A stretch of DNA of 64,000 nucleotides, taken from a virus. The first letter of the stretch is position 1. Each line of letters opens with the position of its first letter. Below the pieces are notes generated by a model. It worked only from the letters and a program-made list of their open reading frames with translations. It searched no databases and was not told the origin of the DNA. Made by a program: the position numbers and the translations under genes. Below are positions 8,749 to 60,503 of this stretch, one piece after another. The stretch lies in the IMG/VR virus record IMGVR_UViG_3300039412_000320. One strand, given 5' to 3'.

Positions 8749-8762
8749 TGACAGGAAAAATA

Positions 8763-8786
8763 AACTTTCTAAACCTTTTATAGGGG
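8763..8786 (+). promoter_or_regulatory. Class A upstream motif AACTTTCTAAACCTTTTATAGGGG (representative instance)
   Basis: Near-identical 22-25-mers end 8-10 nt before the ATG of many genes (see findings for the full list). Confidence 0.5.
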
Positions 8787-8793
8787 AAAGTTT

Positions 8794-9672
8794 ATGTTTA
8801 TCTATTTAATTGTCAACCGAGAGACTGGTAAATACTACATTGGTCAGCACAAGGGGAAAGACTTAAAAAAGTACTTTCAAACCAAGTTATCGGATGCTAA
8901 ACATAATCGGGGAGGAAAGTCTCACCTATATGCTTCTATGCGGAAATATCCCTTACCTTCCTCTTGGTCTATACATGCCCTCCGCTCCGATATCCAGACA
9001 AAAGAAGAGCTTGACCAAACCGAAAAAGATTTCATTAGGTTCCTGCGGTCACAGGACCCAGAATACGGTTATAACATCTGTCGTGGAGGGGAAGGACATA
9101 CCGGACCGCTTTCTCAAGAATCCGTCAAAAAAATATCGGCTTCTCTTAAAAAGTTATGGGGTGGTTCCAAGGGTAAAGAACTCCGAAGAATAAGCGGGGA
9201 AGCATCTGACAAAAGATGGGCGCAACCGGGAAAAAAGGAACGGGCATCAGAAACAATGAGGGAAATCTGGCAGCAGCTAAAACACAGAGAACATGTTTTA
9301 GGTAAACTCAGAAACTACTGGTCAGGGATATCCGATAGTAAAAAGGCTGAAATCAGCAGTAGAATTTCTGCTACCTTGATGGGTCACTTCGTATCCGAAA
9401 AATCCCGAGTTAAAATGTCTTTAGCTCTTAAGGGAAAGCCTAGTTGGAATAAAGATAAAAATTTATCTAGGGAAACAAAGAACAAAGTATCCGTCTCGAT
9501 AACCAAACTTTGGGAAGACCCGCTATATAGGGAGCACATGGTTATAGCCGCTTCTCATCCTAAGCCATATCTTAGAAAGAGATTTTGTAAACATGGACAT
9601 GATACAAATGTTTGTGGAAGATACCCTAATGGCAACTGTCGAGGCTGCCATTTGAGATTACCTCATCTTTAG
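8794..9672 (+). CDS. GIY-YIG homing endonuclease (paralog family A) with NUMOD repeats and C-terminal Cys/His cluster
   Basis: 'MFIYLIVNRETGKYYIGQHKG...YGYNICRGGEG'; C-terminus 'CKHGHDTNVCGRYPNGNCRGCH'. Confidence 0.8.
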   Translation: MFIYLIVNRETGKYYIGQHKGKDLKKYFQTKLSDAKHNRGGKSHLYASMRKYPLPSSWSIHALRSDIQTKEELDQTEKDFIRFLRSQDPEYGYNICRGGEGHTGPLSQESVKKISASLKKLWGGSKGKELRRISGEASDKRWAQPGKKERASETMREIWQQLKHREHVLGKLRNYWSGISDSKKAEISSRISATLMGHFVSEKSRVKMSLALKGKPSWNKDKNLSRETKNKVSVSITKLWEDPLYREHMVIAASHPKPYLRKRFCKHGHDTNVCGRYPNGNCRGCHLRLPHL

Positions 9673-16012: not shown

Positions 16013-16780
16013 ATGTTTATTTATCTTATCGTCAACCATGTGACCGGCAAATACTATGTCGGTCAGCATAAGGGGAATAACCTTAAAAAGTATCTTCAAA
16101 CAAAAATGTCTTCTGCTAGGTATCGTCACAGGGGAAACTCTCATCTTTTCAATTCAATGCGTAAGTATCCTCAGTCTACTTTATGGTCCATCCATGCTCT
16201 TCGTTCCGATATACAGACTCGTGAGGAGCTTGACGAGACCGAAAAAGACTTCATCCGGTTCTTACGGTCGCAAAACCCTGAGTACGGCTACAACATATGC
16301 CGGGGAGGGGAGGGACGAACTGGACCACATTCTGAAATCTCTCGCAAGAAGACCTCTAATTCAATTAAAAAAGCATGGATGATACCAGAAATACGAGAGA
16401 GACTTATAAGTAATAGACGAGGTAAGACCCACAATCGAGGATGTCTTATTCCATATGAAGCACGGATTCGGGGTGGAAAAATTGGAGGAAGTATAAAAAG
16501 TGATGTAAAAATCCAGCATTGTAAAAATATCGCCCATTTAGGGGGGATTATTGGGGGACTTGCTACTAATGCTACCACTAATGGTCGTAAAAGTAGAGGG
16601 GGTCGTGCCAGCGTTCTTAAAATGACTACAGAAACAAGGATTCTCGCAGGTACCAATGGAGGTAAAGTGACCGCCAGTAAACCGGGATTTTTGATTGAAA
16701 TAGGACGGATTGCTCGGTGTAAACACTGGCAAATAGGCCGTGGTAAGCCGTGTATATGTGGTCATCACAACAGCCTTTAG
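16013..16780 (+). CDS. GIY-YIG homing endonuclease (paralog family A) with C-terminal C..W.I.RGKPC.CG.H module
   Basis: 'MFIYLIVNHVTGKYYVGQHKG'; 'CKHWQIGRGKPCICGHH'; class A motif at 15983-16005. Confidence 0.8.
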   Translation: MFIYLIVNHVTGKYYVGQHKGNNLKKYLQTKMSSARYRHRGNSHLFNSMRKYPQSTLWSIHALRSDIQTREELDETEKDFIRFLRSQNPEYGYNICRGGEGRTGPHSEISRKKTSNSIKKAWMIPEIRERLISNRRGKTHNRGCLIPYEARIRGGKIGGSIKSDVKIQHCKNIAHLGGIIGGLATNATTNGRKSRGGRASVLKMTTETRILAGTNGGKVTASKPGFLIEIGRIARCKHWQIGRGKPCICGHHNSL

Positions 16781-18154: not shown

Positions 18155-19321
18155 ATGGAATTATCTCCGACTCCATATACCCCCGAAACACAAATTCCCG
18201 GAACGCAGCTTATATACCTGCGTGAAAGCAATAGAAGGTCCAATGCGGGAAAACGGATGGTATGGGTACGATGCATCCTTCACGGAAATGAGTTCGAGGT
18301 CGTCTTGTCTCACCTAAAGTCCGGGCACACAAAGGGTTGCTTTCAAAATGAAAAGTGTATTCTTCATGATTTCATTCCGGGAAACCTATACCCCGGAACA
18401 GAGATAACATGTGTTCGAGTGGTGGGAACAAGGAAAGGGCAGACCATCGTTGCTGTTTGTTGCAAACACAAAGAATTTGAGGTTGCTTTGAAAGACCTTA
18501 AAAGCGGAAACACGAAAAGGGGATGTTGGGAGTGCGGGGTAGCCAGCCGGGCGGACAAGCAACGTAAATCGTCGGAAAGCATCCTTGTCGAATTAAAAAG
18601 TAGGTGGGGCAGTGAAACCTATGACTACTCCAAGGCTATATTTTACGGAACCCATGTCCCCGTCACCGTCATCTGCCATAAAACCGATAATAACGGGGTG
18701 GAACACGGAGGGTGGTCTGTTACTCCTCACAATCACATGAAGACCGGTTGTCCCAAATGCGGGGATGATGTCGGGGCTGAAAAGCGTAAATTCACTGAAA
18801 AAGAGTTTAAGGATAAGGTCAAGGAAGTTTGGGGAGACCAATACGACCTAAGTGAGCTTGACTACATCACTGCTCAAGGGTGGATTTACCCCATTTGTCC
18901 TAAATCAGGGCACGGGAAGTGGATGACGAGGGCGTACAGCTTTTTACAAGGGCACGGGTGCCCTGTATGCAGTGAGTCTAAGGGAGAAAGGGCTATACGT
19001 GAATATCTTGAGAAGATGGGGATTGCTTTTTTCCAAGAACAAACTTTTGGTGGTTGCCGAAACCACCTGCCCTTACACTTTGACTTTTTCCTCCCGGATA
19101 TTAAGACTCTGATTGAATTTCAAGGGGTGCATCATTATTGTCCGACTCGATTTGGTGGAATAAATCAGCAAGTAGCGGAAGAAAACTTTTCCAAACAACA
19201 GGAGCGAGATGTACTTAAACGACAGTGGGTAGCTGACAACGGTTTCCGCTTGATTGAAATTCCACATACAATTCAATTTGATTCCATTCCTTCTTATCTT
19301 GAGAAACTTCTAGTCATCTAG
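18155..19321 (+). CDS. putative nuclease (PD-(D/E)XK/Vsr-like C-terminal domain) with tandem N-terminal Zn-ribbon/'KSGxTK' modules; homing-endonuclease-like
   Basis: Duplicated 'GNEFEVVLSHLKSGHTKGC' / 'HKEFEVALKDLKSGNTKRGCWEC'; 'GCPKCG', 'GHGCPVCS'; C-terminus 'EYLEKMGIAFFQEQTF...FDFFLPDIKTLIEFQGVHHY'. Confidence 0.45.
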   Translation: MELSPTPYTPETQIPGTQLIYLRESNRRSNAGKRMVWVRCILHGNEFEVVLSHLKSGHTKGCFQNEKCILHDFIPGNLYPGTEITCVRVVGTRKGQTIVAVCCKHKEFEVALKDLKSGNTKRGCWECGVASRADKQRKSSESILVELKSRWGSETYDYSKAIFYGTHVPVTVICHKTDNNGVEHGGWSVTPHNHMKTGCPKCGDDVGAEKRKFTEKEFKDKVKEVWGDQYDLSELDYITAQGWIYPICPKSGHGKWMTRAYSFLQGHGCPVCSESKGERAIREYLEKMGIAFFQEQTFGGCRNHLPLHFDFFLPDIKTLIEFQGVHHYCPTRFGGINQQVAEENFSKQQERDVLKRQWVADNGFRLIEIPHTIQFDSIPSYLEKLLVI

Positions 19322-21046: not shown

Positions 21047-21742
21047 ATGTTCATTTATCTGATTGTTAATCATGATATCGGCAAATATTATGCCGGTCAA
21101 CATAAGGGGAATAATCTTAAAAAGTATCTTCAACAGAAATTTAACCATGCTCAAAGGGGGATTTCTGGCCAATCTTACCTTTATAATTCAATGCGGGCAC
21201 ACCCAGACTCCAAGGTCTGGTCCATTCATGCCCTTCGTTCGGATATCCAAACAAAAGAAGAGCTTAACGAAACCGAGAGGGATTTTATCAAATTTCTGCG
21301 GTCACAAGACCCCGAGTATGGGTACAACATTTGTCGGGGCGGAGAAGGATTCACCGGACCGCATACGGAGGAGACTCGAAAAAGGATATCTCACATTGTT
21401 AAAAATGCATGGAAGACCCCGGAAAAGCGAAAAAATATGCAGTGTAATGGTAATCATCAGTCTCGTGAAGTTAGGGTTCGTAACGGTCAAAAATTAGGTA
21501 AGTGGGGTGTGGAAACCGGGCACCTATTAAAGATTTCTTCACTTGGTTCTCTCGCACAACCTCGTGAGGACAAAGTGAGGGCAGGAAAAATTGGTATTCA
21601 GAGAGGACTTTTGAAACGGACCAAAGAACAAATGACCCTTGATGGTAAGAAAGGGGGATTGTTGGGAGGAAAAATCTCTTGTTGCAAACGTTGGAATATT
21701 GACCGTGGGAAACCGTGTGTTTGTGGAAAGCACCTAAAATAG
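21047..21742 (+). CDS. GIY-YIG homing endonuclease (paralog family A)
   Basis: 'MFIYLIVNHDIGKYYAGQHKG'; 'CKRWNIDRGKPCVCGKH'; class A motif at 21014-21038. Confidence 0.8.
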   Translation: MFIYLIVNHDIGKYYAGQHKGNNLKKYLQQKFNHAQRGISGQSYLYNSMRAHPDSKVWSIHALRSDIQTKEELNETERDFIKFLRSQDPEYGYNICRGGEGFTGPHTEETRKRISHIVKNAWKTPEKRKNMQCNGNHQSREVRVRNGQKLGKWGVETGHLLKISSLGSLAQPREDKVRAGKIGIQRGLLKRTKEQMTLDGKKGGLLGGKISCCKRWNIDRGKPCVCGKHLK

Positions 21743-23754: not shown

Positions 23755-24695
23755 GGACTCCCAAGGAAATCATCTTGAGGTTCCCGGAAGCCTTGCCGGA
23801 CGTGGACCATTGGCTTGTCATGGGGTTGGACCCCAGCCTCTCCCGCACCGGGTATGCGATGATGCATGTCATCCTGCCCGAAGACCCCCACAAAGGCCAA
23901 CCCTGTAAGCATCCCGGATGTCTCAGCCATGTATCCCACCCTTGTGAGGAATGCGGACGCACGGCGGGCATGTTCGGTACCTACGCTGATTGGACACAGG
24001 TGGGCAGTGTCAAGCCGGATTCTTCCAAAGACCCCATTTGGATTCGCAGCAAGGGTATCTCCCTGTTCCTCAAGGAACGTCTCAGTGAAGCGGCCACAAC
24101 CATCAAGTTCGAGGATTTTCTTGCCATAAACAATGGGCAGCCCAGCGTCACTCCCATTCATACCATGGGTCTGCTCATTGCCACGGAGCATCCCACGCCG
24201 ACCAACGATTACCTTGTGGCATTGAACCGTATTATGCATCTTGTTCTGTTCGATGGAGACTTGTGGAAGAAGTTTGCCGTGGTAAAGATTCTCTCCATCA
24301 ATGCCAGCACCTTGCGTAGCCTCATGGGCCTGTCCCAGCGGGGAACTACCAATAAGAAAGAGAACATCCTCAAGGCTTACGAGTTTATTGACAAGACCCG
24401 GTTTCCGGCTCTGGACCCTGATTCCTGTGACGCCGTTCTGTTGGCGATGATGGGGCGGTATGTATCCAGCATATTGCTCGGTCGGCCTCGTGAAATCCCG
24501 GAGAGGGTCCTCCAGTCACTTTGCAACTCCGCCCAAATCTCCAAGGGCAAGGGGCGTAATCAACATTTCGTAACGGCAGGAGTTTTGCATCGTCCTGAGT
24601 ATTTCTATGAGTATCAAAAATTAACTTTCAAATTCTTGAGTAGGGATGCAAGCTCAACGGAACGAAAACTCGATGTGTGTGAGTACCAAATCTAA
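23751..24695 (+). CDS. RuvC-like Holliday junction resolvase with Zn-ribbon insertion
   Basis: 'LVMGLDPSLSRTGYAMM' and 'DSCDAVLLAMMG' are RuvC-like; inserted 'CKHPGCLSHVSHPCEECG'. Start uncertain (GTG 23751 or TTG 23730). Confidence 0.5.
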   Translation: MRTPKEIILRFPEALPDVDHWLVMGLDPSLSRTGYAMMHVILPEDPHKGQPCKHPGCLSHVSHPCEECGRTAGMFGTYADWTQVGSVKPDSSKDPIWIRSKGISLFLKERLSEAATTIKFEDFLAINNGQPSVTPIHTMGLLIATEHPTPTNDYLVALNRIMHLVLFDGDLWKKFAVVKILSINASTLRSLMGLSQRGTTNKKENILKAYEFIDKTRFPALDPDSCDAVLLAMMGRYVSSILLGRPREIPERVLQSLCNSAQISKGKGRNQHFVTAGVLHRPEYFYEYQKLTFKFLSRDASSTERKLDVCEYQI

Positions 24696-25410
24696 GGCCC
24701 GTCATTTGGTTGGGAAAACATTTGGGTTGTGGTTTGTCATATCTTACAAAGGTCGGGGAGTTTATCAATGCCGATGTAGATGTGGAACTGAGAAACCGGT
24801 ATACGGTTCCAATCTTACTCAAAAGAAAACTGGGAGTTGCGGGTGTGTACCTTTTCCCACCAGAAAAGCATGGAATTTCAAAGACCTTTCCGGTAAAAGG
24901 TTTGGTTTTTTGGAGGTACAAGAACTAGACCATGTTGAAAAAAACCGGGTTTTTTGGAAGTGCCTGTGTGTTTGTGGAAAGATTTTACCTGTAAGTACCA
25001 ATAATTTATCCCGCACTACTAGTTGTGGGTGTCGGCGCTATGCCAATCTTTTAGAACCCAAAGAGTTTCTGAGTGGACGGGTATACCGTGAGTATAAGAC
25101 CAGTGCTAAGTCTAGGGGATTGAAATGGGGGCTAGAGAAAGAATTATTCTTGAGTTTAATTTTTCAACCCTGCCATTATTGTGGAGCACCCCCCAGCAAT
25201 GAAGCGGTTACCCGTCGTCTTTACAATAATGGAAAGCTGCCCTACAATGGGATTGATAGGAAAGATATCCATAAGGGATATATTCCGGGCAATGTAGTTC
25301 CTTGTTGTCGTATATGTAATTGGGCAAAACAACAACTTTCCTATGAAGAGTTTTTGAATCATATAAGAAAAATGGCAGTTCATCTCAGTATTCTATCACA
25401 GGAGGAATAA
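24646..25410 (+). CDS. HNH homing endonuclease
   Basis: 'CHYCGAPPS...YNGIDRKDIHKGYIPGNVVPCCRICNWAK'; class A motif at 24623-24645. Confidence 0.8.
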   Translation: MQAQRNENSMCVSTKSKARHLVGKTFGLWFVISYKGRGVYQCRCRCGTEKPVYGSNLTQKKTGSCGCVPFPTRKAWNFKDLSGKRFGFLEVQELDHVEKNRVFWKCLCVCGKILPVSTNNLSRTTSCGCRRYANLLEPKEFLSGRVYREYKTSAKSRGLKWGLEKELFLSLIFQPCHYCGAPPSNEAVTRRLYNNGKLPYNGIDRKDIHKGYIPGNVVPCCRICNWAKQQLSYEEFLNHIRKMAVHLSILSQEE

Positions 25411-26753: not shown

Positions 26754-27059
26754 GTGGCTCTTTTTATTTTACTGTTTTTGGTCCTTGTAGTTCTTAATAT
26801 CTCTGATGGGATAACTACCTATATGGGACTTAAGAAAACGGAAAATGAGGAGGTAAACCCCATTGCATCTTGGTTGATGTGTAAAATCGGCAGTATTCCT
26901 GGAATTATTGTGGTGAAGGTCTTAGCCTTAAGCACCATTGCGGCTGGGATTTTCATTGTCGGTGTGAGGGGTGCCCCAGGGGTGGATATCACACTTTCTA
27001 TCCTGATAGCAGTTTACATTTGGGTTGTCGTTCATAACATCAAGGTTATTTACAAATGA
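26754..27059 (+). CDS. small integral membrane protein (3 predicted TM helices)
   Basis: Hydrophobic segments; stop/start overlap (ATGA) with the next gene. Confidence 0.5.
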   Translation: MALFILLFLVLVVLNISDGITTYMGLKKTENEEVNPIASWLMCKIGSIPGIIVVKVLALSTIAAGIFIVGVRGAPGVDITLSILIAVYIWVVVHNIKVIYK

Positions 27060-29326
27060 AACTATCCGGTAAGAATTTTCAACCATGGAAAGATTTCTCC
27101 CTTATTGTGGACGGGTTGACATTGATTGTCGGACCGTCGAATAAGGGTAAGTGTCTTGCTCCAAATACTCCTGTTCTTATGTATGACGGGACAAATAAAT
27201 TAGCAAAGAACATAGGTGTAGGTGACTTTCTTATGGGGCCGGATAGCACGCCTCGCACCGTTCTTAGTATTTCCCACGGGTTTGATGATATGTATGAGGT
27301 TTTGCCCAATAAAGGGGGCTTCGATGGTTCTTGGGGGTGTAATCAGTATCACATTTTGTCCTTGATTTGCCGATTAGATGGAAAAAAACGTCGTCTCAGT
27401 CCCTTACAGTTAAGACAATGCAGGGTGGAGATTTCAGTTAAGGACTTTCTTTCCAAAAGTGCTACCTATAAACGGAATGCCCGTTTGCATCGTTCGGGAG
27501 GTATAGATTTTAAGTGCCGGGTAGATAAAAAATTTGAACCTTATTTGGTGGGCTATTGGCTTGGCGATGGTACCACCGATTTACATAAATTAGAAGTAAC
27601 AACCGCCGACCTTGAGGTTGTAAACTATTGTCGAAAACTTGCCACCAAGTATGGTCTCCATCTTATACCCAATGATGATGATTCCTACCGATTTTCTACT
27701 AAACATAAAGGAAGTCGAAGTAATGCCCTTCTTAACCGTTTCCGGTTGTTAAAGTTGGTGGATGCAGACGGAAAATGCATACCACATAGCTATCTGGTTG
27801 GCTCAAGGGAAGATAGACTTTTACTATTGGCTGGGTTGCTAGATTCTGATGCTGGATTAGAACCGTCTCAATTTGCCTTTTGTTCGCAGTTTGAGCGACT
27901 TGCTAAACAAGTGGCATTTTTAGCGAGGTCTCTCGGGTTTAGGGCATCTATTTCTCCTAAGTTAAACAAACGATACAATAAGATATACCATACGGTTTTA
28001 ATTTTCGGGAATTTGCCTAGTATTCCTACTATCATAAAGCGAAAAAAGGCATTATCGCAATCCAAAAAATCTTGTTTAACAACGGGGTTTAAAATAAAGC
28101 ATAAAGGGTGGGGAGAATATTTCGGATTTGAGTTGAGCGGGGATGGGCTTTTTCTTCTTGGTGATTTTACTATAACTCATAATAGCTCCATCTTCCGTGC
28201 CCTGCGGGGGGTATTCCGCAATGAACTCCCGCAGGATTTTGTCCGTAATGGACAGGATGAGAAGATGGAAGTGACTCTTGAGGTTGAGGGTGTCAACGAC
28301 CCCATCAGGGCCACCCGGACCCGCAAGGGTTCCACCAAGTACGCCATTGGTGAAGATGAAAAGGGTAAGCCGATAGAGTATAAGGCTCTCGGCGATAGTG
28401 TCCCCGAACCCATGAAGGTGCTCAAGTATGGCACCGTCAAAGTGGGGGACACAACCATAGACCCCATCTTTTCTCAACAGAACAAGGCACAATTCCTCAT
28501 TGACCCCGACGCATGGAAGCCCAACGACCTGAATGCCATCCTTGGGGCCTTTGCCTCTACCGAAAAATTGGATGCAGGGAAGAAGGAAGCCAACCGGCGC
28601 ATTACCGAAAAGAACGGGGAAGCCCGAACGCTCGCCGAAGAAATCCGTGAGGCAGAGGAACGCCGGGGTAAACTTGAGAGGTTTAATGCCTCGGCACAGG
28701 ACTCCGCCCACACCGTGTCTGGTTATGAGGCAAAGGTCAACAGCTATGAGTCATTGTTGGCCTCGCTGACCGAGACACTTACAAGGACGAATCGGATAGC
28801 GAAGATGCGGTCCTTCATCCTCAAGCTGTCTGTGCCGGATGTATCCCCCATTGAGAAACAGGAGCGCCTCGCCCGGATGTATGCCGAGGCGGTAAAAATC
28901 CTCCGTCGCCGGGAAGTCACGGGACAGGTGGTACATGGCATTGACAATACTATAGTCCAGTGGGACCTTGTGGCTAAGGGGTACAAACGCAAGCAGGCGG
29001 TTCTATCCCTGTTGGAAATTGTCGAAAGAAAGGGAGCAAGCCCCAAGGAGTGCGGGGAGAAGTTAGAGGGTGTGCTACAAGAAGCCAACTTCCTACTCGG
29101 AGTCATTGCTCACTACCTCTCGGCGCTTAAGAACATCAACTTGTTGGCAGAGGCATTGAAGCTCCCCAGCAAGAAGAGTGAGCTTAAGTTTACGGAAGAG
29201 GAACTGGACGCCGCTAACGCCAAGGTTAACTCTTTGACGTTGCTTCTGTCCAAGGAATCCAAACCGAAATGCCCGGACTGTGGTACGGAGCTATGCTGCC
29301 CGTCTTGTCAACCGGAATCGAGGTAG
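27056..29326 (+). CDS. SMC/SbcC/RecF-family P-loop ATPase N-terminal half + coiled coil, interrupted by an intein
   Basis: Extein 'MKLSGKNF..LTLIVGPSNKGK|SSIFRALRGVF' gives an SbcC/gp46-like N-terminus; long coiled coil; ends 'CPDCGTELCCPSCQ'; no signature/Walker B region. Confidence 0.55.
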   Translation: MKLSGKNFQPWKDFSLIVDGLTLIVGPSNKGKCLAPNTPVLMYDGTNKLAKNIGVGDFLMGPDSTPRTVLSISHGFDDMYEVLPNKGGFDGSWGCNQYHILSLICRLDGKKRRLSPLQLRQCRVEISVKDFLSKSATYKRNARLHRSGGIDFKCRVDKKFEPYLVGYWLGDGTTDLHKLEVTTADLEVVNYCRKLATKYGLHLIPNDDDSYRFSTKHKGSRSNALLNRFRLLKLVDADGKCIPHSYLVGSREDRLLLLAGLLDSDAGLEPSQFAFCSQFERLAKQVAFLARSLGFRASISPKLNKRYNKIYHTVLIFGNLPSIPTIIKRKKALSQSKKSCLTTGFKIKHKGWGEYFGFELSGDGLFLLGDFTITHNSSIFRALRGVFRNELPQDFVRNGQDEKMEVTLEVEGVNDPIRATRTRKGSTKYAIGEDEKGKPIEYKALGDSVPEPMKVLKYGTVKVGDTTIDPIFSQQNKAQFLIDPDAWKPNDLNAILGAFASTEKLDAGKKEANRRITEKNGEARTLAEEIREAEERRGKLERFNASAQDSAHTVSGYEAKVNSYESLLASLTETLTRTNRIAKMRSFILKLSVPDVSPIEKQERLARMYAEAVKILRRREVTGQVVHGIDNTIVQWDLVAKGYKRKQAVLSLLEIVERKGASPKECGEKLEGVLQEANFLLGVIAHYLSALKNINLLAEALKLPSKKSELKFTEEELDAANAKVNSLTLLLSKESKPKCPDCGTELCCPSCQPESR
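27152..28183 (+). mobile_element. Intein (344 aa) with LAGLIDADG homing endonuclease domain inserted in the Walker A P-loop
   Basis: Begins 'CLAPNTPVLMYDG', ends 'ITHN' followed by Ser; DOD motifs 'LVGYWLGDGT' and 'LLAGLLDSDAG'. Confidence 0.8.
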
Positions 29327-34690: not shown

Positions 34691-35119
34691 ATGGGTAGAC
34701 TTCGATTATTCAATGATAAGGAAAAGTGGTGTTCCGCTTGTACATCATGGCTCCCATTGGATGCTTTTTCAAAATTGAAGAGAGAACCTTCCGGTAGAGC
34801 AACCTATTGTCGGCTCTGCAAAAAGAAAAAAAATCAAAAATGGGGGTATAAACATCAGAAAAAGTATACCCATAATCACCTCTATGGGATTACACTGGAA
34901 GAACGAGAAATCTTGTGGGAAAAACAAAATAGATGCTGCGGGATATGTAAAGAACCCATCCCCGTGCAAGGGAATAAAAGTCATTTAGACCATAACCACG
35001 ACACTGGAAAAGTTAGAGGACTTCTTTGCCCAACCTGCAATATGGGAATAGGTCTTTTAGGTGAAGGAAGGTTTCTTATTGCCGCTATCCAATACTTAGA
35101 GAAGGCAGAATGCACATGA
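34691..35119 (+). CDS. Endonuclease VII-family (T4 gp49-like) HNH nuclease
   Basis: 'HLDHNHDTGKVRGLLCPTCNMGIGLLGE'. Confidence 0.7.
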   Translation: MGRLRLFNDKEKWCSACTSWLPLDAFSKLKREPSGRATYCRLCKKKKNQKWGYKHQKKYTHNHLYGITLEEREILWEKQNRCCGICKEPIPVQGNKSHLDHNHDTGKVRGLLCPTCNMGIGLLGEGRFLIAAIQYLEKAECT

Positions 35120-38364: not shown

Positions 38365-38955
38365 TTGATTATGCCTACAGGGGTTTATGAGAGAACAGCA
38401 GAACAAAAACAGCGGTTAGCCCAATATGCTAACTGTAGAAAAGGTAAAAAGTATATAAATTCTCGGTTAACCTGCAAATATGGTCATCCGTTAACCGAAG
38501 ACAATTTAACGGGAGGAAAGAGAAGGCGGTGTAAGATATGTCGCCGAAATATTGTTGAAAAGTGGAGGCTTGCTAATCCTGAAAAGGTTGCAGCTAAAAC
38601 TCGTCGGTGGAGAAAAAATAACACAGAAAAAGACAAGCTTATACGCCGACGTTCCGTTTTAAAAAGGCAATATAAGTTAACTCCAGAAAAAGTAAAGGAA
38701 ATGTTTGAATTACAGGGAAGAAAATGTGCTAACTTAGGGTGTGGTTCTACTTCACCGGGGCGGAGGGGGTGGGATTGGTCAATAGACCATAATCACACTA
38801 CTTTGAAAGTGAGAGGAATCCTCTGTAATGGATGCAATGCTGCTTTGGGGTTTTTACACGAGAACAAGGAAAGAATTTTAGGATTGGCTGAATACCTTAA
38901 GAAATATGAGGAGGAAAAATGTTTGGACATTCTAACTGGGCTATCTTCGGCATAG
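38365..38955 (+). CDS. Endonuclease VII-family HNH nuclease
   Basis: 'WSIDHNHTTLKVRGILCNGCNAALGFL'. Confidence 0.7.
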   Translation: MIMPTGVYERTAEQKQRLAQYANCRKGKKYINSRLTCKYGHPLTEDNLTGGKRRRCKICRRNIVEKWRLANPEKVAAKTRRWRKNNTEKDKLIRRRSVLKRQYKLTPEKVKEMFELQGRKCANLGCGSTSPGRRGWDWSIDHNHTTLKVRGILCNGCNAALGFLHENKERILGLAEYLKKYEEEKCLDILTGLSSA

Positions 38956-41013: not shown

Positions 41014-42120
41014 ATGAATCTAATCTCCTTTCGTCCCACGGCTTGGAGCGAAGTCGTGGGACAAGACAGAGTCGTATCCTTACTCAAGAGTCTCCTGACT
41101 ACGGGAAAGTTTCTTCCTCGTGGTTTCATCCTCAAAGGTCCATGGGGCCTTGGGAAAACCTCTGTGGCCTACCTTCTTTCCCGTGCGCTCATGTGCGCCG
41201 GGAGTGACCCACTGGGTTGTGGAACGTGCCCCTCCTGTCGCTTCATCGACCAAGAGACAATTGAGCATGACGCCGACTTCTTTGAAACGGATGCTGCTGA
41301 ACACCCCGGCGTGCAAGATGCCCGCAATTTAATGGACTGCATGGCGCAGCCGCCCATCACTGGGAAGCGCCGGGTCGCTGTGATTGATGAAGCCCATCGG
41401 CTTTCTTCGGAAGCTTGGGATGTTTTCCTCAAGCCACTGGAGCGCCCCGACACTGACAGTATCTTCATGTTCGTTACCACCGATGACAACCGCATCCCCA
41501 AGACCATCCAGTCCCGCTGTTTGCCGCTGACTTTCTATCGTGCCACAGACGACGTGATTACCGGCCTGATGGCGAGCATAGCCTCCCGTAACGGCATTGA
41601 CTATGAACTTGATGCTATCAAGGACATCGCCAAACACTCCAAAGGCATCATAAGGGAGGCGGTCCGTTGGCTGGGATTCGCCGCCGCACTGGGCAAGGTG
41701 AACAGGGAGAACGTTGACAAGGTTCTGGATAATCCCCTAGAAAGCGTATGCTACAGCATCCTGCTGGCTATAAGCCATGGGGACCAAGCCGCTGCCGTCA
41801 AGCTTGCCGACGATGGCGCACGGGTAGCGCTTCCAACCAAGGTCATTGAAACTACCTTTTCCCTTTATGCCAAGTCCCCATGGTCGGAGCCAGCCTCGGA
41901 GCTTGCTCGTATTGCTGAGACGCTCCCCAACATTAAGGAGACTTCCGCTATATTTCTCAAATGGTTAGCGACCCCGTTCATTCCCGCTGATGCCCTCCCC
42001 CTTTTTGTGTACGAGCTTATGGCGGCGGCGAGAATCCTCAAATCAGTCAAGCCGCCGACCAATGCTCCAAGCAAGAATTTCTCTTCCAGCCAAGCCATCC
42101 TGAAAGGTGAAGTTTTGTAA
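41014..42120 (+). CDS. Clamp-loader AAA+ ATPase subunit (DnaX/gp44/RFC-like)
   Basis: 'GPWGLGKTS', Zn module 'CGTCPSCRF', 'VIDEAHRL', 'QSRC'. Confidence 0.75.
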   Translation: MNLISFRPTAWSEVVGQDRVVSLLKSLLTTGKFLPRGFILKGPWGLGKTSVAYLLSRALMCAGSDPLGCGTCPSCRFIDQETIEHDADFFETDAAEHPGVQDARNLMDCMAQPPITGKRRVAVIDEAHRLSSEAWDVFLKPLERPDTDSIFMFVTTDDNRIPKTIQSRCLPLTFYRATDDVITGLMASIASRNGIDYELDAIKDIAKHSKGIIREAVRWLGFAAALGKVNRENVDKVLDNPLESVCYSILLAISHGDQAAAVKLADDGARVALPTKVIETTFSLYAKSPWSEPASELARIAETLPNIKETSAIFLKWLATPFIPADALPLFVYELMAAARILKSVKPPTNAPSKNFSSSQAILKGEVL

Positions 42121-42155
42121 AAAACAACTTCCTAATCCTTAATCGGGAAGAAGTT

Positions 42156-42905
42156 ATGTTCATTTATCTCATTGTTAACCACGAGACCGGTAAGTACTAT
42201 GTCGGTCAGCATAAGGGGAACAATCTAAAGAAATATCTTCAGCAGAAGTTTCACCACGCCCAAAGAGGTATCTCAAACCAATCTCGCCTTTATCAGTCTA
42301 TGCGAGCACACTCAGACCCCTCTTCTTGGTCCATACACGCCCTCCGGGCCGACATCACTGACCGAGAAGAGCTTGACCAAACTGAACGGGATTTCATCAA
42401 GTTCCTGCGGTCGCAGGACCCTGAGTATGGGTACAATATATGCCGGGGTGGGGAGGGAAGAACCGGACCCCTTTCAGATGAAACTCGTAAGAAGATTGGA
42501 GAAGGTAATAAGGCTGCTTGGGCTAATCCAGAGACTAAACAGTCCCGCATTGACAGCATACGGAAATGTATGTGTAACCGAGAGGTGTCTCAGGAAACAA
42601 GACAAAAATTGAGCAATGCATTAACGGGCAGAGAAGTTCCAATTGAGGAAAGAATCAAGATGAGTAAAGTAGCGAAAGGAAGAAAGCAGGCTCCCGAATG
42701 CACTGCTAAAATATCCGCATCCAATCGTGGTAGAAAACGGTCGGAAGAATTCCGTGCTAAGTGCAGACAGAGGGTTGTGTCAGATGAGACTAGAGCCAAA
42801 CTTAGTAAAATAGCGAGTGCGAGACGGCTTTCTCCCGAGATACGTGCCAAAATCAGTAAAAGCACACAGGGAAGACAACGGGATAAGCTAGGACGTTTGC
42901 GCTAA
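42156..42905 (+). CDS. GIY-YIG homing endonuclease (paralog family A) with NUMOD repeats
   Basis: 'MFIYLIVNHETGKYYVGQHKG'; class A motif at 42126-42147. Confidence 0.8.
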   Translation: MFIYLIVNHETGKYYVGQHKGNNLKKYLQQKFHHAQRGISNQSRLYQSMRAHSDPSSWSIHALRADITDREELDQTERDFIKFLRSQDPEYGYNICRGGEGRTGPLSDETRKKIGEGNKAAWANPETKQSRIDSIRKCMCNREVSQETRQKLSNALTGREVPIEERIKMSKVAKGRKQAPECTAKISASNRGRKRSEEFRAKCRQRVVSDETRAKLSKIASARRLSPEIRAKISKSTQGRQRDKLGRLR

Positions 42906-42932
42906 ACAATCAGTATTATACTGTGGAGGACC

Positions 42933-44117
42933 ATGTTACTAACATATAGAGACTGCTCCAAGCTGAAAGGCAAGGAGTGGTGTATGCTGGAAGTTCGCAG
43001 CGAGAAGACCATCGAACCCACCCTACGCCGGATAGGCAAACAAATACCTCAGATTTTTCGAGAAGATGCTGTGGAATTGTTCATACCGGTAGGTCACCGG
43101 GACCTTGACGTTTTTGACCTCACGGCGGCGGCGTACCTCTTTGTCCGCAGTGATAGTTTCCAAGGGCTATTGCGGCTAAAGACCATCACGGGTGTGGTGT
43201 CTCTGGTCACTGAGGGAGATTCAAACCGGCCAAATAAGGTAATAAGAGTCTCCGACACGGAAGTTCAGAAGCTTATGTCCCCTGCCGAGAAGCAGTTCAG
43301 GGAACACTCCTCCGGGGTAGAGGTGGGGTCCTTTGTCCGGGTTCTTAACGGCGAGACCCGAGATTTCTGTGGGACGGTAACAGCTATTGGAGCCGGGCGG
43401 GCGGTCATTCGCATAACCTTGAAGACCAAGAGTATCATGCTGGAGACCCCTGTTCGGAACCTCCTCAACCTCTCCTATGTTCCCAAAGACATACGAACTT
43501 ACTACTATTGTCCCCTTGTTTCCACCCTCAAGGAAGATGACGAAAAGGAAGGAGAAAAGGCCCTCTCCGAACTTTATGCTGAGTTCGACGCCGAAGAGGC
43601 TGAGGCGCTCAAGGAAGCAACTACCGAAAAAGAGATTGGGGAAATCAAGGACTCCACTGTCCGCAGGAAGTTTGCCGCCGCCAGCCGGGCGAAGGATATC
43701 AAGGAGGCTTTAAGCCTCATCCGGGAAGACACCAAGCTGGGAGAGTCTCCCCTCGTTCCCACCGCCAAGCGGAAAGACCAGCACGAGCCGCTCAAGAAGT
43801 CCCGGCAGAAGACGGTCACAGCCCTTGTGCGCAAACTCATTCTCGTGGATGGCATCCACGTTCCCTCCACCATCGCTGCCAAAATTGTGGAGGCCATCAA
43901 GAAAGGGGAAGTCAAATCCCCTAAGAACTACTTCATTATTTACACAATAGTGAAGGATAACGTCATGAAGCACTGGGTGAAAAAGGAAAATCCAGCCTTC
44001 AAAAACTACCGGGAAGTGGTGAAGAAGTATGGAGATACCTATAAGTTTTCCGCTAAACAGATGGCAAAGGTGGACCCCTCACTACCAATTCCTTTAGGTA
44101 GCAGCAAAGAGGAGTAG
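42933..44117 (+). CDS. NusG-like (NGN + KOW) transcription factor with long Lys-rich C-terminal extension
   Basis: KOW-like 'EVGSFVRVLNGETRDFCGTVTAIGAGRAVIRITLKTKSIMLETPVRNL'; class B motif + GGAGG directly upstream. Confidence 0.45.
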   Translation: MLLTYRDCSKLKGKEWCMLEVRSEKTIEPTLRRIGKQIPQIFREDAVELFIPVGHRDLDVFDLTAAAYLFVRSDSFQGLLRLKTITGVVSLVTEGDSNRPNKVIRVSDTEVQKLMSPAEKQFREHSSGVEVGSFVRVLNGETRDFCGTVTAIGAGRAVIRITLKTKSIMLETPVRNLLNLSYVPKDIRTYYYCPLVSTLKEDDEKEGEKALSELYAEFDAEEAEALKEATTEKEIGEIKDSTVRRKFAAASRAKDIKEALSLIREDTKLGESPLVPTAKRKDQHEPLKKSRQKTVTALVRKLILVDGIHVPSTIAAKIVEAIKKGEVKSPKNYFIIYTIVKDNVMKHWVKKENPAFKNYREVVKKYGDTYKFSAKQMAKVDPSLPIPLGSSKEE

Positions 44118-56945: not shown

Positions 56946-58103
56946 TTATTGTTCTTCTTTTTGATTTATAATACCACTAATTTGGTGGTCCCATCTAGTC
57001 TGGGGCCATCGTAAGCGTTTAGCCCTTGCCATAGAAGAACATTTTCTGCAAACGCTCCCCCGCTCCTCCATTTGTTTGCATAACCAAGCATATTTATAGT
57101 GCAAAGAAACACCACAAACCGGGCAGTGGCGTTCCGTTTTAGTATATAAGGGGGCACATCTATTCTTTGCCGCACAACTACCACACAGCCCGTTAGTCTT
57201 ATCAGCTATTTTACAGTGGTACTTATTCTTATAGATTAGTCTTTTTTTACATTGGGGACAAAGGCGGGATTTTATGTTTGGCGATACCGGGCTACCATCT
57301 GGCGAATATCCGGTACGGGCATGAATCAAGTCCCCATTTTGGTACGCCGGGTCTGTCACTCTTACTCGTTTGTAGACACCATCTTTATCTATTGTTAGAA
57401 CATATCCTTTGTTTACATGGGTGAGTTCCCCGGTTATCAGCCGTGGGTCATCACAGGTGGTATCAATCACAATCCCAGCCTTGTCCTTCGTTGTTATTCT
57501 GCCCTTTCGTACATGCACTAACTCCCCGGACAAATATCGAGGGTCATCTTTTCTTACTTTGAAGCGGTTTCCGAGAGAGTCTTTAACATTGACCGTGTAT
57601 CTCGCAAAGTGCGTTAGGCTACCGTCTTTAAGGCGGGGGTCATTTGTTTCTACATGGTATATATCCCCATTTTTATCCTTTGCGGCAACCTTTCCTCTCA
57701 TTGTTTTACCGCACTGGTCCTTAACCACACTAACCGCCCTTTCGTACTCTTGAAGATATTCGTCTTCTATTTTAATCTTTCCCATTTTGCTCATCATTTT
57801 CCATGCATAGGCGGTAGCTTGGCATTTGACGGCCCTGAATAAAAGGTAGTGAGCCTTGAAGTGGTCAAATGGGCTTATTTTAACTGAATTCCACGGATGA
57901 CCGACTCTACTCTTGTATTCCGGGAACATAGATTTAGGGAGGATGTGGTGCCAGTTTCCTTTTTCTCTTTCTGGTAGTTTTGACTTTTGGATGTGGTCTA
58001 AGTATGCCCAAAAGGCGTCTCGGTCAACCATCGGATATCGTTCTATAAATATGTCTATGAGTTCCTTCATTGGGAATCCTCTAATAAGGAGTTCGGTAAT
58101 CAT
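56946..58103 (-). CDS. HNH-like homing endonuclease with four tandem 'DPRLxxGxLxH' repeats and C-terminal Zn fingers
   Basis: 'NWHHILPKS...N...FDHFKAH'; repeats 'DPRLKDGSLTHFARYT', 'DPRYLSGELVHVRKG', 'DPRLITGELTHVNKG', 'DPAYQNGDLIHARTG'; 'CPQCKK...CGSC', 'CPVCG...CRKC'. Confidence 0.45.
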   Translation of the reverse strand: MITELLIRGFPMKELIDIFIERYPMVDRDAFWAYLDHIQKSKLPEREKGNWHHILPKSMFPEYKSRVGHPWNSVKISPFDHFKAHYLLFRAVKCQATAYAWKMMSKMGKIKIEDEYLQEYERAVSVVKDQCGKTMRGKVAAKDKNGDIYHVETNDPRLKDGSLTHFARYTVNVKDSLGNRFKVRKDDPRYLSGELVHVRKGRITTKDKAGIVIDTTCDDPRLITGELTHVNKGYVLTIDKDGVYKRVRVTDPAYQNGDLIHARTGYSPDGSPVSPNIKSRLCPQCKKRLIYKNKYHCKIADKTNGLCGSCAAKNRCAPLYTKTERHCPVCGVSLHYKYAWLCKQMEERGSVCRKCSSMARAKRLRWPQTRWDHQISGIINQKEEQ

Positions 58104-58130
58104 TTAATACCCGTTTACCGCAAGTTGCTC

Positions 58131-59651: not shown

Positions 59652-60503
59652 ATGTTCATATACCTTATCGCTAATCACATCACAGGAAAATACTACATCG
59701 GTCAGCATAAGGGTAGAGACCTCCGCAAATATCTTCACAAAAAATTTTGGGAAGCGGAACATGGTTTAGGCGGGTCCTCCCATCTTTACGCCGCTATAAG
59801 AAAATATGGAAGAAGTAGTTTCAGCATTCATGCTCTCCGTTCGGATATCCAAACAAAAGAAGAGTTAGACCAAGTCGAAAAGGATTTTATTATTTTTCTA
59901 AAAGCCCAAGACCCTGAATATGGTTACAACATCCGTCGAGGAGGAGAGGGATTTACCTCAGAAGAAGCAAAGGAAATTGCCAAAAATCGACTAGCCGACC
60001 CCACATTTATTACCAGATTAACTATGGCGTTGAAAGAAGCATGGAAAGACCCTGAAACTCAAGCCAAACATTCCGAGTCTATCAAAAAATTATGGCAAGA
60101 TTCGGAGTTCCGTGACAAAGTTGTTAAAAAACTGAGGAGCCCAGAAGTAAGAGATAGAAAATCTAAGGCTAATAGGAAAAGATTTTCTACTTATGAGGCT
60201 CGTACTAAACAAGCCAAAGCAGTAAATGCGGGGTGGTCTGATTTAGAGCTTCGCACCAGACAATCTGAGTTAGTTAAGAAGCTATGGTCAGACCCCCAAA
60301 CTCGATATAAAATGATGGAGGGGGTTAAGAAACGAGCAGCTACCATAAGTTTGAATGGTAAAAAAACTATGTCCAAGCCAGGACACCTGTCTTATATGAC
60401 TAAAAAAGGGCATTGCCAACGCTGGAACATCAACCGTGGCAAACCTTGTACCTGCGGATATCATCCTTTGCTTATGCTCAAGGTAAATGAGAGAACCACT
60501 TAA
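59652..60503 (+). CDS. GIY-YIG homing endonuclease (paralog family A) with C-terminal C..W.I.RGKPC.CG.H module
   Basis: 'MFIYLIANHITGKYYIGQHKG'; 'CQRWNINRGKPCTCGYH'; class A motif at 59631-59646. Confidence 0.8.
   Translation: MFIYLIANHITGKYYIGQHKGRDLRKYLHKKFWEAEHGLGGSSHLYAAIRKYGRSSFSIHALRSDIQTKEELDQVEKDFIIFLKAQDPEYGYNIRRGGEGFTSEEAKEIAKNRLADPTFITRLTMALKEAWKDPETQAKHSESIKKLWQDSEFRDKVVKKLRSPEVRDRKSKANRKRFSTYEARTKQAKAVNAGWSDLELRTRQSELVKKLWSDPQTRYKMMEGVKKRAATISLNGKKTMSKPGHLSYMTKKGHCQRWNINRGKPCTCGYHPLLMLKVNERTT

Follow-up and report, generated by a model that had tools for sequence, protein, structure and literature searches.

A Phage NusG/Spt5-Like Protein with a Conserved, Strongly Basic Domain Predicted Downstream of Its NGN and KOW Domains

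INTRODUCTION

To our knowledge, no transcription factor other than NusG/Spt5 is conserved throughout cellular life. The textbook case of long foreign operons evading Rho-mediated silencing is that of the specialized NusG paralogs; well-studied phages either use the host NusG or have invented unrelated antiterminators. The specialized paralogs (NusG-SP proteins) promote read-through of very long co-directional arrays in horizontally mobile genomes, and accessory domains acquired by the NGN-KOW core can alter how such proteins are recruited or how stable they are (PMC7819879). Phage antitermination makes the host polymerase on phage DNA resistant to Rho, to pausing, and to intrinsic terminators (PMC7819879). 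Lambda N and Q, HK022 put RNA, Xp10 p7, and P4 Psu presumably answer the same need as the protein described here, but they are unrelated to it in sequence and fold. Lambda N uses host NusG and other phage antiterminators use other sites, whereas in the present case the phage supplies a NusG of its own. Another group of Caudoviricetes proteins, the viral KOW histones (VKH), is described in a preprint as joining a NusG-like KOW domain to a histone fold via a long loop (10.1101/2024.12.06.627149).

Here we describe a NusG-like protein encoded in a 64,000-nucleotide stretch of phage DNA (IMG/VR virus record IMGVR_UViG_3300039412_000320), which is called the window below. All features given by a range of positions lie on the plus strand of the window.

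RESULTS

The gene and its domain order

The open reading frame at positions 42933 to 44117 is a real gene. It is complete from ATG to stop and encodes 394 amino acids (aa), and inspection of the sequence places a Shine-Dalgarno element, GGAGGA, at 42925 to 42930. The protein has 206 homologs at an E value of ≤0.001 (best E value, 1e-251), and query coverage is 91 to 100% for most homologs among the matches listed. The AlphaFold2 model has a pLDDT of 83.9. At the N terminus, an extension of aa 1 to 15 (42933 to 42977) forms a short beta strand ahead of NGN strand 1 (model strand E2-5) and has a mean pairwise identity of 55% in the family alignment. It is followed by an NGN domain at aa 16 to 125 (42978 to 43307), placed by Foldseek, NCBIfam, and the Pfam score of the distant family member P0155, and by a KOW beta-barrel at aa 128 to 182 (43314 to 43478), placed by PDB profile alignment and model strands. 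A linker at aa 183 to 282 (43479 to 43778), recognized from the model and from homolog spacing, leads to an orphan C-terminal domain (CTD) at aa 283 to 385 (43779 to 44087). Alignment and tail classification assign only aa 386 to 394 (IPLGSSKEE) and the stop codon (44088 to 44117) to the C-terminal end; the DPSLP just before it (aa 381 to 385) is part of the CTD.

NGN and KOW domains indicate membership in the NusG/Spt5 superfamily

We read the secondary-structure order of the modeled NGN domain as beta1-alpha1-beta2-hairpin-beta3-alpha2-beta4-alpha3, and it is followed by a beta-barrel whose KOW strands lie within aa 134 to 179. When the model was compared with the PDB by Foldseek, the best 23 matches were all NusG/Spt5 (E values from 1e-5), with alignments of 118 to 251 columns, mostly ~170 to 180, that span NGN and KOW. 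A PDB profile search gave NusG chains in 8 of 8 matches, aligned in register, with the KOW domain on that of NusG in 1nz9, 1m1g, and 2lq8. Matches to family profiles are weaker. The phrog_6386 profile ("transcription antiterminator") matches aa 66 to 163 only weakly (E value, 9.4e-5), the NCBIfam UpxY model matches aa 64 to 173 (E value, 3.8e-5; 23.7 bits versus a cutoff of 100), and the NCBIfam nusG model (TIGR00922) aligns from aa 79 (E value, 1.3e-4; 21.9 bits versus a cutoff of 135.7). The same models are matched below threshold across the family, nusG by 31 of 32 members and UpxY by 23 of 32; KOW_SPT5 Pfam families are matched by several members, and P0155 reaches 20.8 bits on Pfam NusG (positions 2 to 91 of 93) against a cutoff of 22.2. 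In the family alignment, NGN has 30 invariant columns and a mean identity of 70%, and KOW has a mean identity of 74%.

Because every curated NusG-family score of the window protein is far under its cutoff, the homology is remote. The case for it, which is weak in any single profile but consistent across them and with the predicted structure, supports placing the protein in the NusG/Spt5 superfamily, as a phage-encoded member in which KOW comes after NGN. The sequence-only reading had proposed a phage NusG/Spt5-like protein with an NGN-like fold and then a KOW motif in the N-terminal ~170 aa, and aa 16 to 182 bear this out. Of the checks that it named, structure prediction gave the NGN order, the KOW barrel, and the NusG/Spt5 fold matches, while the profile searches were divided: the Pfam NusG (PF02357) and KOW models left the window protein below threshold, but the NCBIfam and PDB profiles returned NusG. 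The alternative it had raised, a ribosomal L24/L26-type protein as the source of the KOW similarity, can be set aside because Pfam, NCBIfam, PDB, and Foldseek gave no such family or structure match and because an NGN domain precedes the KOW.

In E. coli NusG, the residues that bind Rho are I164-F165-G166 (PMC7593976). In the alignment to 1nz9, the equivalent loop of the phage KOW domain reads KSI(L/M)L, is two residues longer, and has no F-G pair, although this comparison uses E. coli residues, whereas the phage probably infects an acidobacterium or some other bacterium of soil. The change resembles the loss of Rho-binding loop residues in RfaH.

Comparison with characterized NusG proteins

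Housekeeping NusG (TIGR00922; 2jvv, 1m1g, and 1nz9) shares the NGN-linker-KOW order and folds with the window protein. The two align in register through the end of NGN (GxxSxRP...D/E-V), the linker, and KOW (G-x-V-R-V...G...DF.G.V), with ~12 to 19% identity in fold alignments. By our reading, the FPGY-type motif of E. coli NusG is absent. The window protein differs from housekeeping NusG by an added N-terminal extension of 12 to 15 aa and a conserved basic domain of 100 aa, and it is phage encoded, whereas housekeeping NusG belongs to a secE-nusG-rplK operon.

Like the NusG-SP proteins (RfaH, UpxY, LoaP, TaA, and ActX), it is a divergent additional copy of NusG on a mobile genome, and that genome has very long co-directional gene arrays, as in NusG-SP settings. 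However, it reaches none of the curated NusG-SP thresholds, its gene is not the first of a polysaccharide or secondary-metabolite operon, and none of these paralogs has its third domain. The LoaP model (NF033641) is matched by only 2 of 32 family members (best E value, 0.006), and the genomic context does not fit, since LoaP adjoins a polyketide or polysaccharide cluster. The gene for UpxY (NF033644) opens a capsular polysaccharide operon, and UpxY is paired with UpxZ, whereas the window gene follows a clamp loader gene. There is no match to the RfaH family, and the KOW domain is predicted to be a beta-barrel with no sign of an alpha-hairpin state.

Other elaborated NusG proteins also differ. 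Thermotoga maritima NusG has its extra domain, DII, inserted within NGN, whereas the helical basic domain of the window protein comes after KOW; eukaryotic Spt5 has several KOWs and a CTR, whereas the addition in the window protein is a helical domain without a detectable relative. PHROG 6386 collects known phage proteins about as long as NusG; its alignment to the window protein covers positions 64 to 162 of 179, and the profile has no counterpart of the C-terminal 210 aa of the window protein. VKH resembles the window protein in combining KOW, a long connection, and a small helical domain (of DNA-binding type in VKH). The description of VKH does not mention NGN, and the CTD of the window protein shows no similarity to a histone fold.

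The CTD is a conserved third domain

The CTD is predicted to fold into five helices, has a pI of 10 and a net charge of +13, and carries the motifs RQ(K/R)TVTA and PKNxFIxYxIxKD. Its mean identity of 62% nearly matches that of NGN (70%) and KOW (74%). It is almost confined to the NGN-KOW-CTD architecture (55 clusters among 1.84 billion proteins), and some relatives bear tandem copies. Among relatives, a LAGLIDADG intein interrupts the CTD exactly between PKNLFIVY and CIIKD, which is the most conserved motif; inteins favor critical sites of information-processing proteins. A conserved extended segment, DPxLxIP(V/L), follows the last CTD helix. Directly after the CTD, 23 of 120 homologs have AT-hook tails (KRRGRPRK), and zinc-ribbon tails follow it in 52 of 120. 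The window protein has no AT-hook core (R-G-R-P) and no basic tail at its C terminus.

Searches with 16 CTDs found no relatives in Pfam, a PDB profile search found none that was convincing, and comparison with the BFVD viral structure library by Foldseek gave only E values above 1. Two TPR proteins from a search of representative sequences look spurious as CTD relatives, and we detected no similarity to a histone fold of the VKH type. We conclude from conservation and modeling that the CTD is a conserved, strongly basic third domain found only in this phage family.

The linker consists of a post-KOW segment, a highly charged helical insert at about aa 205 to 267, and then a disordered stretch at aa 271 to 291. 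AlphaFold2 predicts helices in this region at aa 194 to 267 with a pLDDT of 90 to 97, versus below 50 for aa 271 to 291. The linker/insert region has 45% charged residues and a net charge of −3. Only 10 of 120 homologs, the sub-clade of the window protein, carry the insert, and their KOW-to-CTD spacing is 101 to 118 aa, versus 46 to 63 aa in the other homologs. The insert appears to be a dispensable spacer of one sub-clade.

The C-terminal half of the protein is lysine rich (31 K in aa 205 to 394), and the sequence-only reading had taken it for a lysine-rich tail, a 220-aa basic/acidic extension unlike known NusG paralogs. It is indeed unlike the characterized paralogs considered here, but it is not a simple tail. 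A disordered lysine-rich tail does not agree with the AlphaFold2 prediction of folded helices and a compact domain or with the conservation of the CTD; instead, the region comprises the clade-specific charged helical insert and the conserved basic domain, which is predicted to be folded.

Genomic setting and upstream elements

The upstream neighbor of the gene encodes a DnaX-like clamp loader (41014 to 42120; Pfam DNA_pol3_delta2, 2.2e-28). Of 27 related loci (40 to 99% protein identity), 22 likewise have a clamp loader gene just ahead of the NusG-like gene and in the same orientation; this synteny is lost in L004, L020, and L030, and the upstream flanks of L026 and L027, which are shorter, showed no clamp loader. 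Between the two genes of the window lies a GIY-YIG/NUMOD3 homing endonuclease gene (42156 to 42905; Pfam and PHROG matches), which is missing from this junction in L009/L010 (99% identical) and L007/L008. By this sequence comparison, the homing endonuclease gene appears to be a recent insertion. The NusG-like gene is located in a conserved replication/core module, and the core genome is collinear across these phages. The family was found only on phage and metagenomic contigs, many of 200 to 460 kb, and no cellular homolog was found in 185,579 GTDB species genomes.

A candidate promoter or regulatory element, CAGTATTATA, is at 42911 to 42920, 22 nucleotides (nt) upstream of the ATG. It has 8 matches in the window versus 2.1 expected and also precedes the starts at 25410 and 40519 by 24 to 25 nt. 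In 6 of 27 related loci, AGTATTA is present in the 80 nt before the NusG-like gene (background, 0.006). For the ops element GGCGGTAGnnTG, an enterobacterial consensus, there are 57 ops-like matches versus 44 ± 6 expected, which is not a meaningful enrichment; most are inside coding sequence, and the single exact match is probably due to chance. Nor is there an excess of terminator-like sites in the surroundings of the gene (21 versus 16.1 ± 3.8), and no Rfam families or tRNAs were found in the 64-kb window. A recurrent intergenic hairpin motif, AACTTTCTA...TTTATAGGG, was rejected as a promoter or ops candidate; it belongs to homing-endonuclease cassettes, in which it is the Shine-Dalgarno-sequestering leader of six paralogous GIY-YIG genes. 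The link to late operons, such as a fiber/glycosylation operon, that the sequence-only reading had suggested thus finds no support in a gene that follows a clamp loader in the replication/core module, and the ops-like pause elements for which it proposed a search gave no enriched signal.

Polymerase-related genes of a cultured relative

A cultured phage with a related protein is Tunturi_5, which infects Tunturiibacter psychrotolerans X4BP1 (Acidobacteriota); its gp25 is labeled "transcription antiterminator" in GenBank. Among the 345 of 350 Tunturi_5 features reviewed, no RNA polymerase subunit is annotated, although the annotation could overlook a very divergent phage RNA polymerase. Two sigma factors, gp3 and gp211, are present, and we confirmed one of them, gp211, as ECF type with sigma-70 regions 2 and 4. 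Tunturi_5 also has a clamp (gp9) and a clamp loader (gp24) of its own. Three giant "NUDIX" proteins were considered as RNA polymerase candidates and are ART polyvalent proteins. No homologs of the Tunturi_5 sigma factors and clamp were found within the 64-kb window, and the window ORFs scanned gave no match to RNA polymerase families in PHROGs or Pfam.

DISCUSSION

We consider it fairly probable that the window protein is a phage-specific, highly divergent NusG paralog that acts on the host polymerase. By analogy with NusG, Spt5, and RfaH, the docking site of the NGN domain on a multisubunit RNA polymerase would consist of the beta-prime clamp helices and the beta gate loop, and docking would make the enzyme resistant to pausing and termination. 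Occupancy of this site by the phage protein would, by the same analogy, exclude host NusG and therefore also NusG-stimulated Rho termination of foreign DNA. Because Tunturi_5 has sigma factors and no annotated RNA polymerase, the target would be the core enzyme of the host, with sigma factors of the phage redirecting it. From homology, we infer that the protein may bring about operon-specific antitermination. The CTD may contact either a phage partner or nucleic acid, be it the upstream DNA or the nascent RNA, as suggested by its charge, the AT-hook and zinc-ribbon tails of relatives, and the intein at its most conserved motif; for nucleic acid, the argument draws on charge and on motifs fused in relatives, the window protein having neither tail. 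Such a contact would stabilize the factor on phage transcription complexes or target it to them.

A bolder possibility, which we hold only tentatively and think rather unlikely, is that the CTD is a new module for binding nucleic acid or the replisome that makes NusG a tethered, phage-genome-specific processivity factor. The CTD would then anchor the NGN-modified host polymerase to phage DNA, to nascent RNA, or to the sliding-clamp machinery. If this is true, antitermination would be phage genome wide and coupled to replication, would need no ops-type recruitment sequence, and would represent a mode of NusG specialization not seen in cellular paralogs.

It is unlikely, but a little less so than the possibilities that follow, that the protein occupies the NusG site mainly to disable NusG-dependent host functions (rRNA antitermination complexes, transcription-translation coupling, and Rho/NusG silencing) and not to aid phage genes. 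The evidence for NusG homology fits such a decoy equally well, the KOW loop is unlike the one with which E. coli NusG binds Rho, so that KOW partners may not be engaged, and the lineage's own sigma factors indicate extensive takeover of the polymerase. However, a simple decoy would not need a KOW domain and a third domain conserved at 74% and 62%, respectively, and the two roles are compatible, as in RfaH, which both excludes NusG and activates its targets.

The clamp loader gene just upstream on the same strand in most loci, the clamp and clamp loader of Tunturi_5, and the conserved extended segment after the last CTD helix would all suit a coupler of replication and transcription, which we regard as decidedly improbable. 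In such a coupler, the CTD or DPxLxIP(V/L) would bind some part of the phage replisome, such as the sliding clamp or the clamp loader, and tether the NusG-modified polymerase to replicating phage DNA, much as late transcription in T4 employs the gp45 clamp together with gp33 and gp55. However, these phages have a collinear core genome, so adjacency to the clamp loader may reflect common descent and not functional linkage, and the adjacency is itself lost in three loci and undetected in the two shorter flanks. The P-x-L segment follows both copies in tandem-CTD proteins, which suggests a part of the fold and not a clamp-binding peptide, and it does not have the leading glutamine with which beta-clamp motifs usually start.

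Recruitment of NGN-KOW to a role outside transcription, whether in translation, RNA processing, DNA packaging, or as a chromatin protein of the VKH type, has in its favor that KOW domains also occur in ribosomal proteins, that the CTD is basic, and that VKH proteins of Caudoviricetes carry a histone fold along with their NusG-like KOW (10.1101/2024.12.06.627149). We consider this very improbable; as to VKH, the CTD has no detectable histone-fold similarity. Least probable of all is a phage-encoded multisubunit RNA polymerase as the partner in place of the host enzyme: many jumbo phages, such as phiKZ-like ones, have multisubunit polymerases so divergent that they can escape annotation pipelines, and the window is 64 kb of a ~317-kb genome, but no subunit was found among the Tunturi_5 features or the window ORFs scanned, the largest unexplained Tunturi_5 proteins are ART polyvalent proteins, and phage sigma factors, one of them confirmed as ECF type, act on the bacterial core enzyme.

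If the protein is a NusG paralog acting on the host polymerase, as we favor, the combination of a remodeled NusG and sigma factors of its own suggests that this soil jumbo-phage lineage has a third route to polymerase takeover. Since a cultured member, Tunturi_5, exists, the question is open to experiment, and the CTD could point to a new partner of an elongation factor or to a new mode of recruiting one.

Identification of a NusG/Spt5 superfamily protein

The NusG-like gene at 42933-44117 (plus strand) is an unbroken open reading frame (ORF) with an ATG start, encodes 394 aa, and is preceded by a Shine-Dalgarno sequence, GGAGGA, at 42925-42930. Its product has 206 homologs (E ≤ 0.001) in a collection of 5.8 billion proteins; among the 120 matches listed, E values go down to 1e-251, query coverage is mostly 91 to 100%, and many of the homolog-bearing contigs are 200 to 463 kb long. 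The number of homologs and the strength of these matches show that this is not a chance reading frame. The only match in a cultured phage is gp25 of Tunturiibacter phage Tunturi_5, a 309-kb jumbo myovirus, which is annotated as a "transcription antiterminator." No member of the family was found among 185,579 bacterial and archaeal species genomes, and its distribution is phage only in the collections searched.

The Pfam NusG and KOW models do not match the protein, while every test more sensitive than Pfam agrees that it belongs with NusG. It is matched by PHROG 6386, "transcription antiterminator" (aa 66 to 163; E = 9.4e-5), by NCBIfam UpxY (aa 64 to 173; E = 3.8e-5), and by NCBIfam nusG (aa 79 to 163; E = 1.3e-4); in a sample of 32 family members, nusG matches 31 and UpxY matches 23, all far under the curated cutoffs. 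A family profile searched against all PDB sequences gives eight matches, all of them NusG (E = 0.085 to 1.3), whose alignments stay in register from the end of the NGN domain through the linker and the KOW motif. An hhalign comparison with E. coli NusG has the same register (E = 5.5e-4), and the distant homolog P0155 scores 20.8 bits against the Pfam NusG (NGN) model, which has a threshold of 22.2. The alignment-based AlphaFold2 model is confident (mean pLDDT of 83.9): aa 16 to 125 have a strand and helix order that we take to be that of the NGN fold, and aa 134 to 179 form a β-barrel. The top 23 Foldseek matches in the PDB are NusG or Spt5 chains (E from 1e-5), aligned over 118 to 251 columns, most of them over about 170 to 180.

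The sequence-only reading had proposed an NGN-KOW protein of the NusG paralog type and had named a ribosomal L24/L26-type protein as the competing source of the KOW similarity. Since PHROG, NCBIfam, the PDB profile search, AlphaFold2, and Foldseek are concordant and L24/L26 is absent from the matches at every search level, that observation is confirmed. Based on fold and remote homology, we place the protein in the NusG/Spt5 superfamily; of its curated subfamilies, nusG, RfaH, UpxY, and LoaP either score far below threshold or give no match.

A conserved basic domain in the C-terminal half

Alignment and structure models indicate that, rather than a low-complexity tail, the C-terminal 210 residues form three parts: a short post-KOW segment; a charged helical insert and a disordered stretch; and a five-helix domain, the C-terminal domain (CTD). 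The insert (aa ~205 to 267; 45% charged, net charge of -3), which is followed by the disordered stretch (aa 271 to 291), is limited to the window's own subclade, and among the 120 matches listed the spacing between the KOW and CTD motifs is 101 to 118 residues in 10 homologs and 46 to 63 in the rest. The CTD (aa 283 to 385) is compact (stand-alone model pLDDT of 84.7, pTM of 0.75) and basic (pI of 10.0, net charge of +13, 19 lysines in 103 residues). Mean pairwise identity is 70% for the NGN domain, 74% for KOW, 62% for the CTD, and 37% for the insert, and the family alignment has 19 invariant CTD columns. The signature motifs of the CTD are RQ(K/R)TVTA and PKNxFIxYxIxKD. The CTD is nearly as conserved as the canonical NGN and KOW domains. 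What had been described as a long lysine-rich tail is indeed rich in lysine within the CTD, but it is an insert plus a folded, conserved domain rather than a tail.

No known domain was recognized in the CTD: Pfam searches with 16 CTDs gave no consistent family, and neither the PDB sequences nor the viral structures of BFVD yielded a match. Among 1.84 billion representative proteins, a CTD profile picked out only 55 clusters, in which most matches fall at about residues 220 to 345 of proteins of 340 to 520 aa and have the same NGN-KOW-CTD architecture. The matches outside this architecture are mostly short proteins, which may be fragments; two TPR proteins ranked last appear to be spurious.

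Distant members P0130, P0146, and P0155 carry a tandem double CTD, and P0125 (755 aa, from the representative search) has a LAGLIDADG intein inside the most conserved CTD motif, between PKNLFIVY and CIIKD, with intein ends C...HN (Cys1 ... His-Asn/Cys+1). Inteins tend to occupy sites that are critical to the function of replication, recombination, and transcription proteins. Most relatives extend past the CTD with a basic tail; among the 120 matches listed, where such variants fall in the range P0015 to P0120, a canonical AT-hook, KRRGRPRK, is present in the tails of 23, a Cys4-type zinc ribbon in those of 52, and a DGRSREAR motif in 74 homologs. The zinc ribbon probably explains the JGI label "ribosomal protein L32" on one homolog. 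The window protein itself has neither an AT-hook nor a zinc-ribbon tail. The charge of the CTD, the tandem CTDs, the intein site, and the AT-hook and zinc-ribbon tails of the relatives together suggest that the C-terminal region works beside nucleic acid. Our preferred guess is that the CTD serves in nucleic acid contact or tethering; alternatively, it might bind a replisome component or a phage sigma factor. A preprint (10.1101/2024.12.06.627149) describes "viral KOW histones," which join a NusG-like KOW to a histone fold through a long loop; a test of this idea on the CTD gave no histone-fold signal.

Genomic context and homing endonucleases

The window comes from a jumbo phage genome and has genes for a terminase, a DnaG-type primase, a large DNA polymerase, a portal protein, a UvsX-like recombinase, a helicase, tail fibers, and glycosyltransferases. 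The NusG-like gene sits in a core block (primase, DNA polymerase, portal, gp23-like, clamp loader, NusG-like, gp27-like) that is collinear with Tunturi_5, and the proposed link to a late fiber operon is unsupported. In 22 of 27 related loci (40 to 99% protein identity), the clamp-loader gene is found upstream in the same orientation; given the collinear core of these phages, this adjacency is weak evidence for functional coupling.

L004 is the one long contig examined in which no clamp loader adjoins the NusG-like gene; there, a protein of 246 aa that faintly matches Phage_antitermQ (8305-9045) is encoded two genes upstream of the NusG-like gene, after very large fiber-like ORFs. In the window, tblastn with Tunturi_5 gp1 finds nothing at an E of 1e-3 for the terminase large-subunit gene (27056-29326), even though the primase, polymerase, and portal genes around it show clear homology and collinearity with those of Tunturi_5, which suggests that the terminase may have undergone module exchange or rapid divergence. 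A 1,222-aa ORF at 2749-6417 (plus strand), with regions resembling β-1,4-glycosyltransferase (aa 97 to 386) and DNA methyltransferase (aa 424 to 563), is a possible DNA-modification enzyme.

In the window, the clamp-loader and NusG-like genes are separated by a GIY-YIG/NUMOD3 homing endonuclease gene (42156-42905), one of six paralogous free-standing GIY-YIG genes, all on the plus strand (the others are at 2121-2768, 8794-9672, 16013-16780, 21047-21742, and 59652-60503). Their products all begin MF(I/V)YLI and are 34 to 74% identical to one another. The junction copy is absent from the 99%-identical loci L009 and L010, which indicates that its insertion is recent, and also from L007 and L008. 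GIY-YIG genes lie at or near this junction (42121-42932 in the window) in other lineages (loci compared, L007 to L010, L013, and L025 to L027), which suggests a homing hotspot. With further homing-type nucleases at 18155-19321 (HNH), 24646-25410 (HNH/Endo VII), and 34691-35119 and 38365-38955 (two Endonuclease VII-domain ORFs), the 64-kb window holds at least ten nuclease genes.

Each of the six GIY-YIG genes is preceded by a short AACTTTCTA...TTTATAGGG element or a variant of it. This intergenic motif occurs 4 times in the window (0.03 expected) and in several cases folds into a hairpin, the 3' arm of which holds the Shine-Dalgarno sequence. Homing endonucleases of T4 are under similar control by sequestration of the ribosome-binding site. 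As the leader of these endonuclease genes, the element is unrelated to NusG recruitment, and we rejected it as a recruitment element.

Candidate regulatory elements

The suggested search for ops-like pause elements found no meaningful enrichment of the enterobacterial consensus in the window (57 matches with ≤2 mismatches versus 44 ± 6 expected). One exact match, GGCGGTAGCTTG at 57810-57821 (plus strand; about 0.1 expected by estimate), lies antisense in a minus-strand ORF (56946-58103) and ~315 nt upstream of a plus-strand ORF starting at 58125; it is probably a chance occurrence. Terminator-like hairpins are not enriched near the NusG-like gene.

The motif CAGTATTATA occurs 8 times in the window (2.1 expected), with plus-strand sites at 1954, 21759, 25386, 29941, 40494, 42911, and 52072, and is usually located 22 to 25 nt ahead of a start codon, as it is for the NusG-like gene, the ORF at 40519, and the UvsX-like gene. 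Many related loci have a variant of (C/T)AGTATT(A/G/T) in front of the NusG-like gene, and exact AGTATTA is present in 6 of 27 (background of 0.006 per 80 nt). In other phages, (C/T)AGTATTA elements are 12 to 32 nt upstream of this gene, and the closest leave no space for a Shine-Dalgarno sequence. The motif may be a promoter element of a class that includes the NusG-like gene, or CAGTATTATA/(C/T)AGTATTA may mark leaderless starts.

Likely polymerase target and mode of action

Among the 345 of 350 annotated Tunturi_5 features reviewed, there is no RNA polymerase subunit, and there are two sigma factors, gp3 and gp211, the latter with sigma-70 regions 2 and 4 confirmed by Pfam. The giant "MutT/NUDIX hydrolase" proteins of this phage, gp225, gp273, and gp321 (1,262 to 1,489 aa; L032:13409-17197, minus strand; L033:25802-30271 and L034:11501-15589, plus strand), were ruled out as polymerase subunits; by Pfam they are ART-type polyvalent proteins, combining ART-PolyVal with, variously, GNAT, 2'-5' RNA ligase, SprT-like, and nucleoside deoxyribosyltransferase-like domains. 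The Tunturi paper has no discussion of transcription (PMC11924767). Most economically, this lineage would use its own sigma factors to redirect the host core polymerase, which makes the host polymerase the likely target of the NGN domain.

Across all domains of life, the NGN domain docks on the clamp helices and gate loop of elongating polymerase and suppresses pausing; the KOW domain brings in partners (Rho and ribosomal protein S10 in the case of NusG, the ribosome in that of RfaH), and specialized paralogs keep NusG out, so that long foreign operons are shielded from Rho (PMC7593976, PMC7819879). The phage protein has the NGN and KOW folds, with strong purifying constraint on all three domains, and would act likewise on phage transcription units. 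These units are very long codirectional arrays: 58 of 69 roughly called window genes are on the plus strand, and intergenic gaps of ≥30 nt total about 2.2 kb across 64 kb. Aligned with the Thermus NusG KOW, the KOW loop has a longer K-S-I-(L/M)-L at the position of the E. coli NusG I-F-G loop, which contacts Rho (PMC7593976). With the E. coli residues as reference, this is a hint of a change like the one by which the RfaH lineage lost Rho binding early on.

Like the specialized paralogs, the protein is an extra NusG in a mobile genome with long operons. It differs from them in its third, orphan domain, as anticipated when the extension was called unlike known NusG paralogs, in having no identifiable recruitment element, and in being encoded by a core gene of a phage lineage. 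The earlier interpretation thus stands as to a NusG paralog but not as to the tail or the late fiber operon. Automated pipelines have already labeled some family members "NusG" or "transcription antiterminator," PHROG 6386 comprises NusG-sized phage proteins, and rfaH-like genes have been noted on prophages and plasmids; our literature search found no paper on phage-encoded NusG. The finding would gain interest if the orphan domain proves to anchor the elongation complex on DNA, on RNA, or at the replisome.
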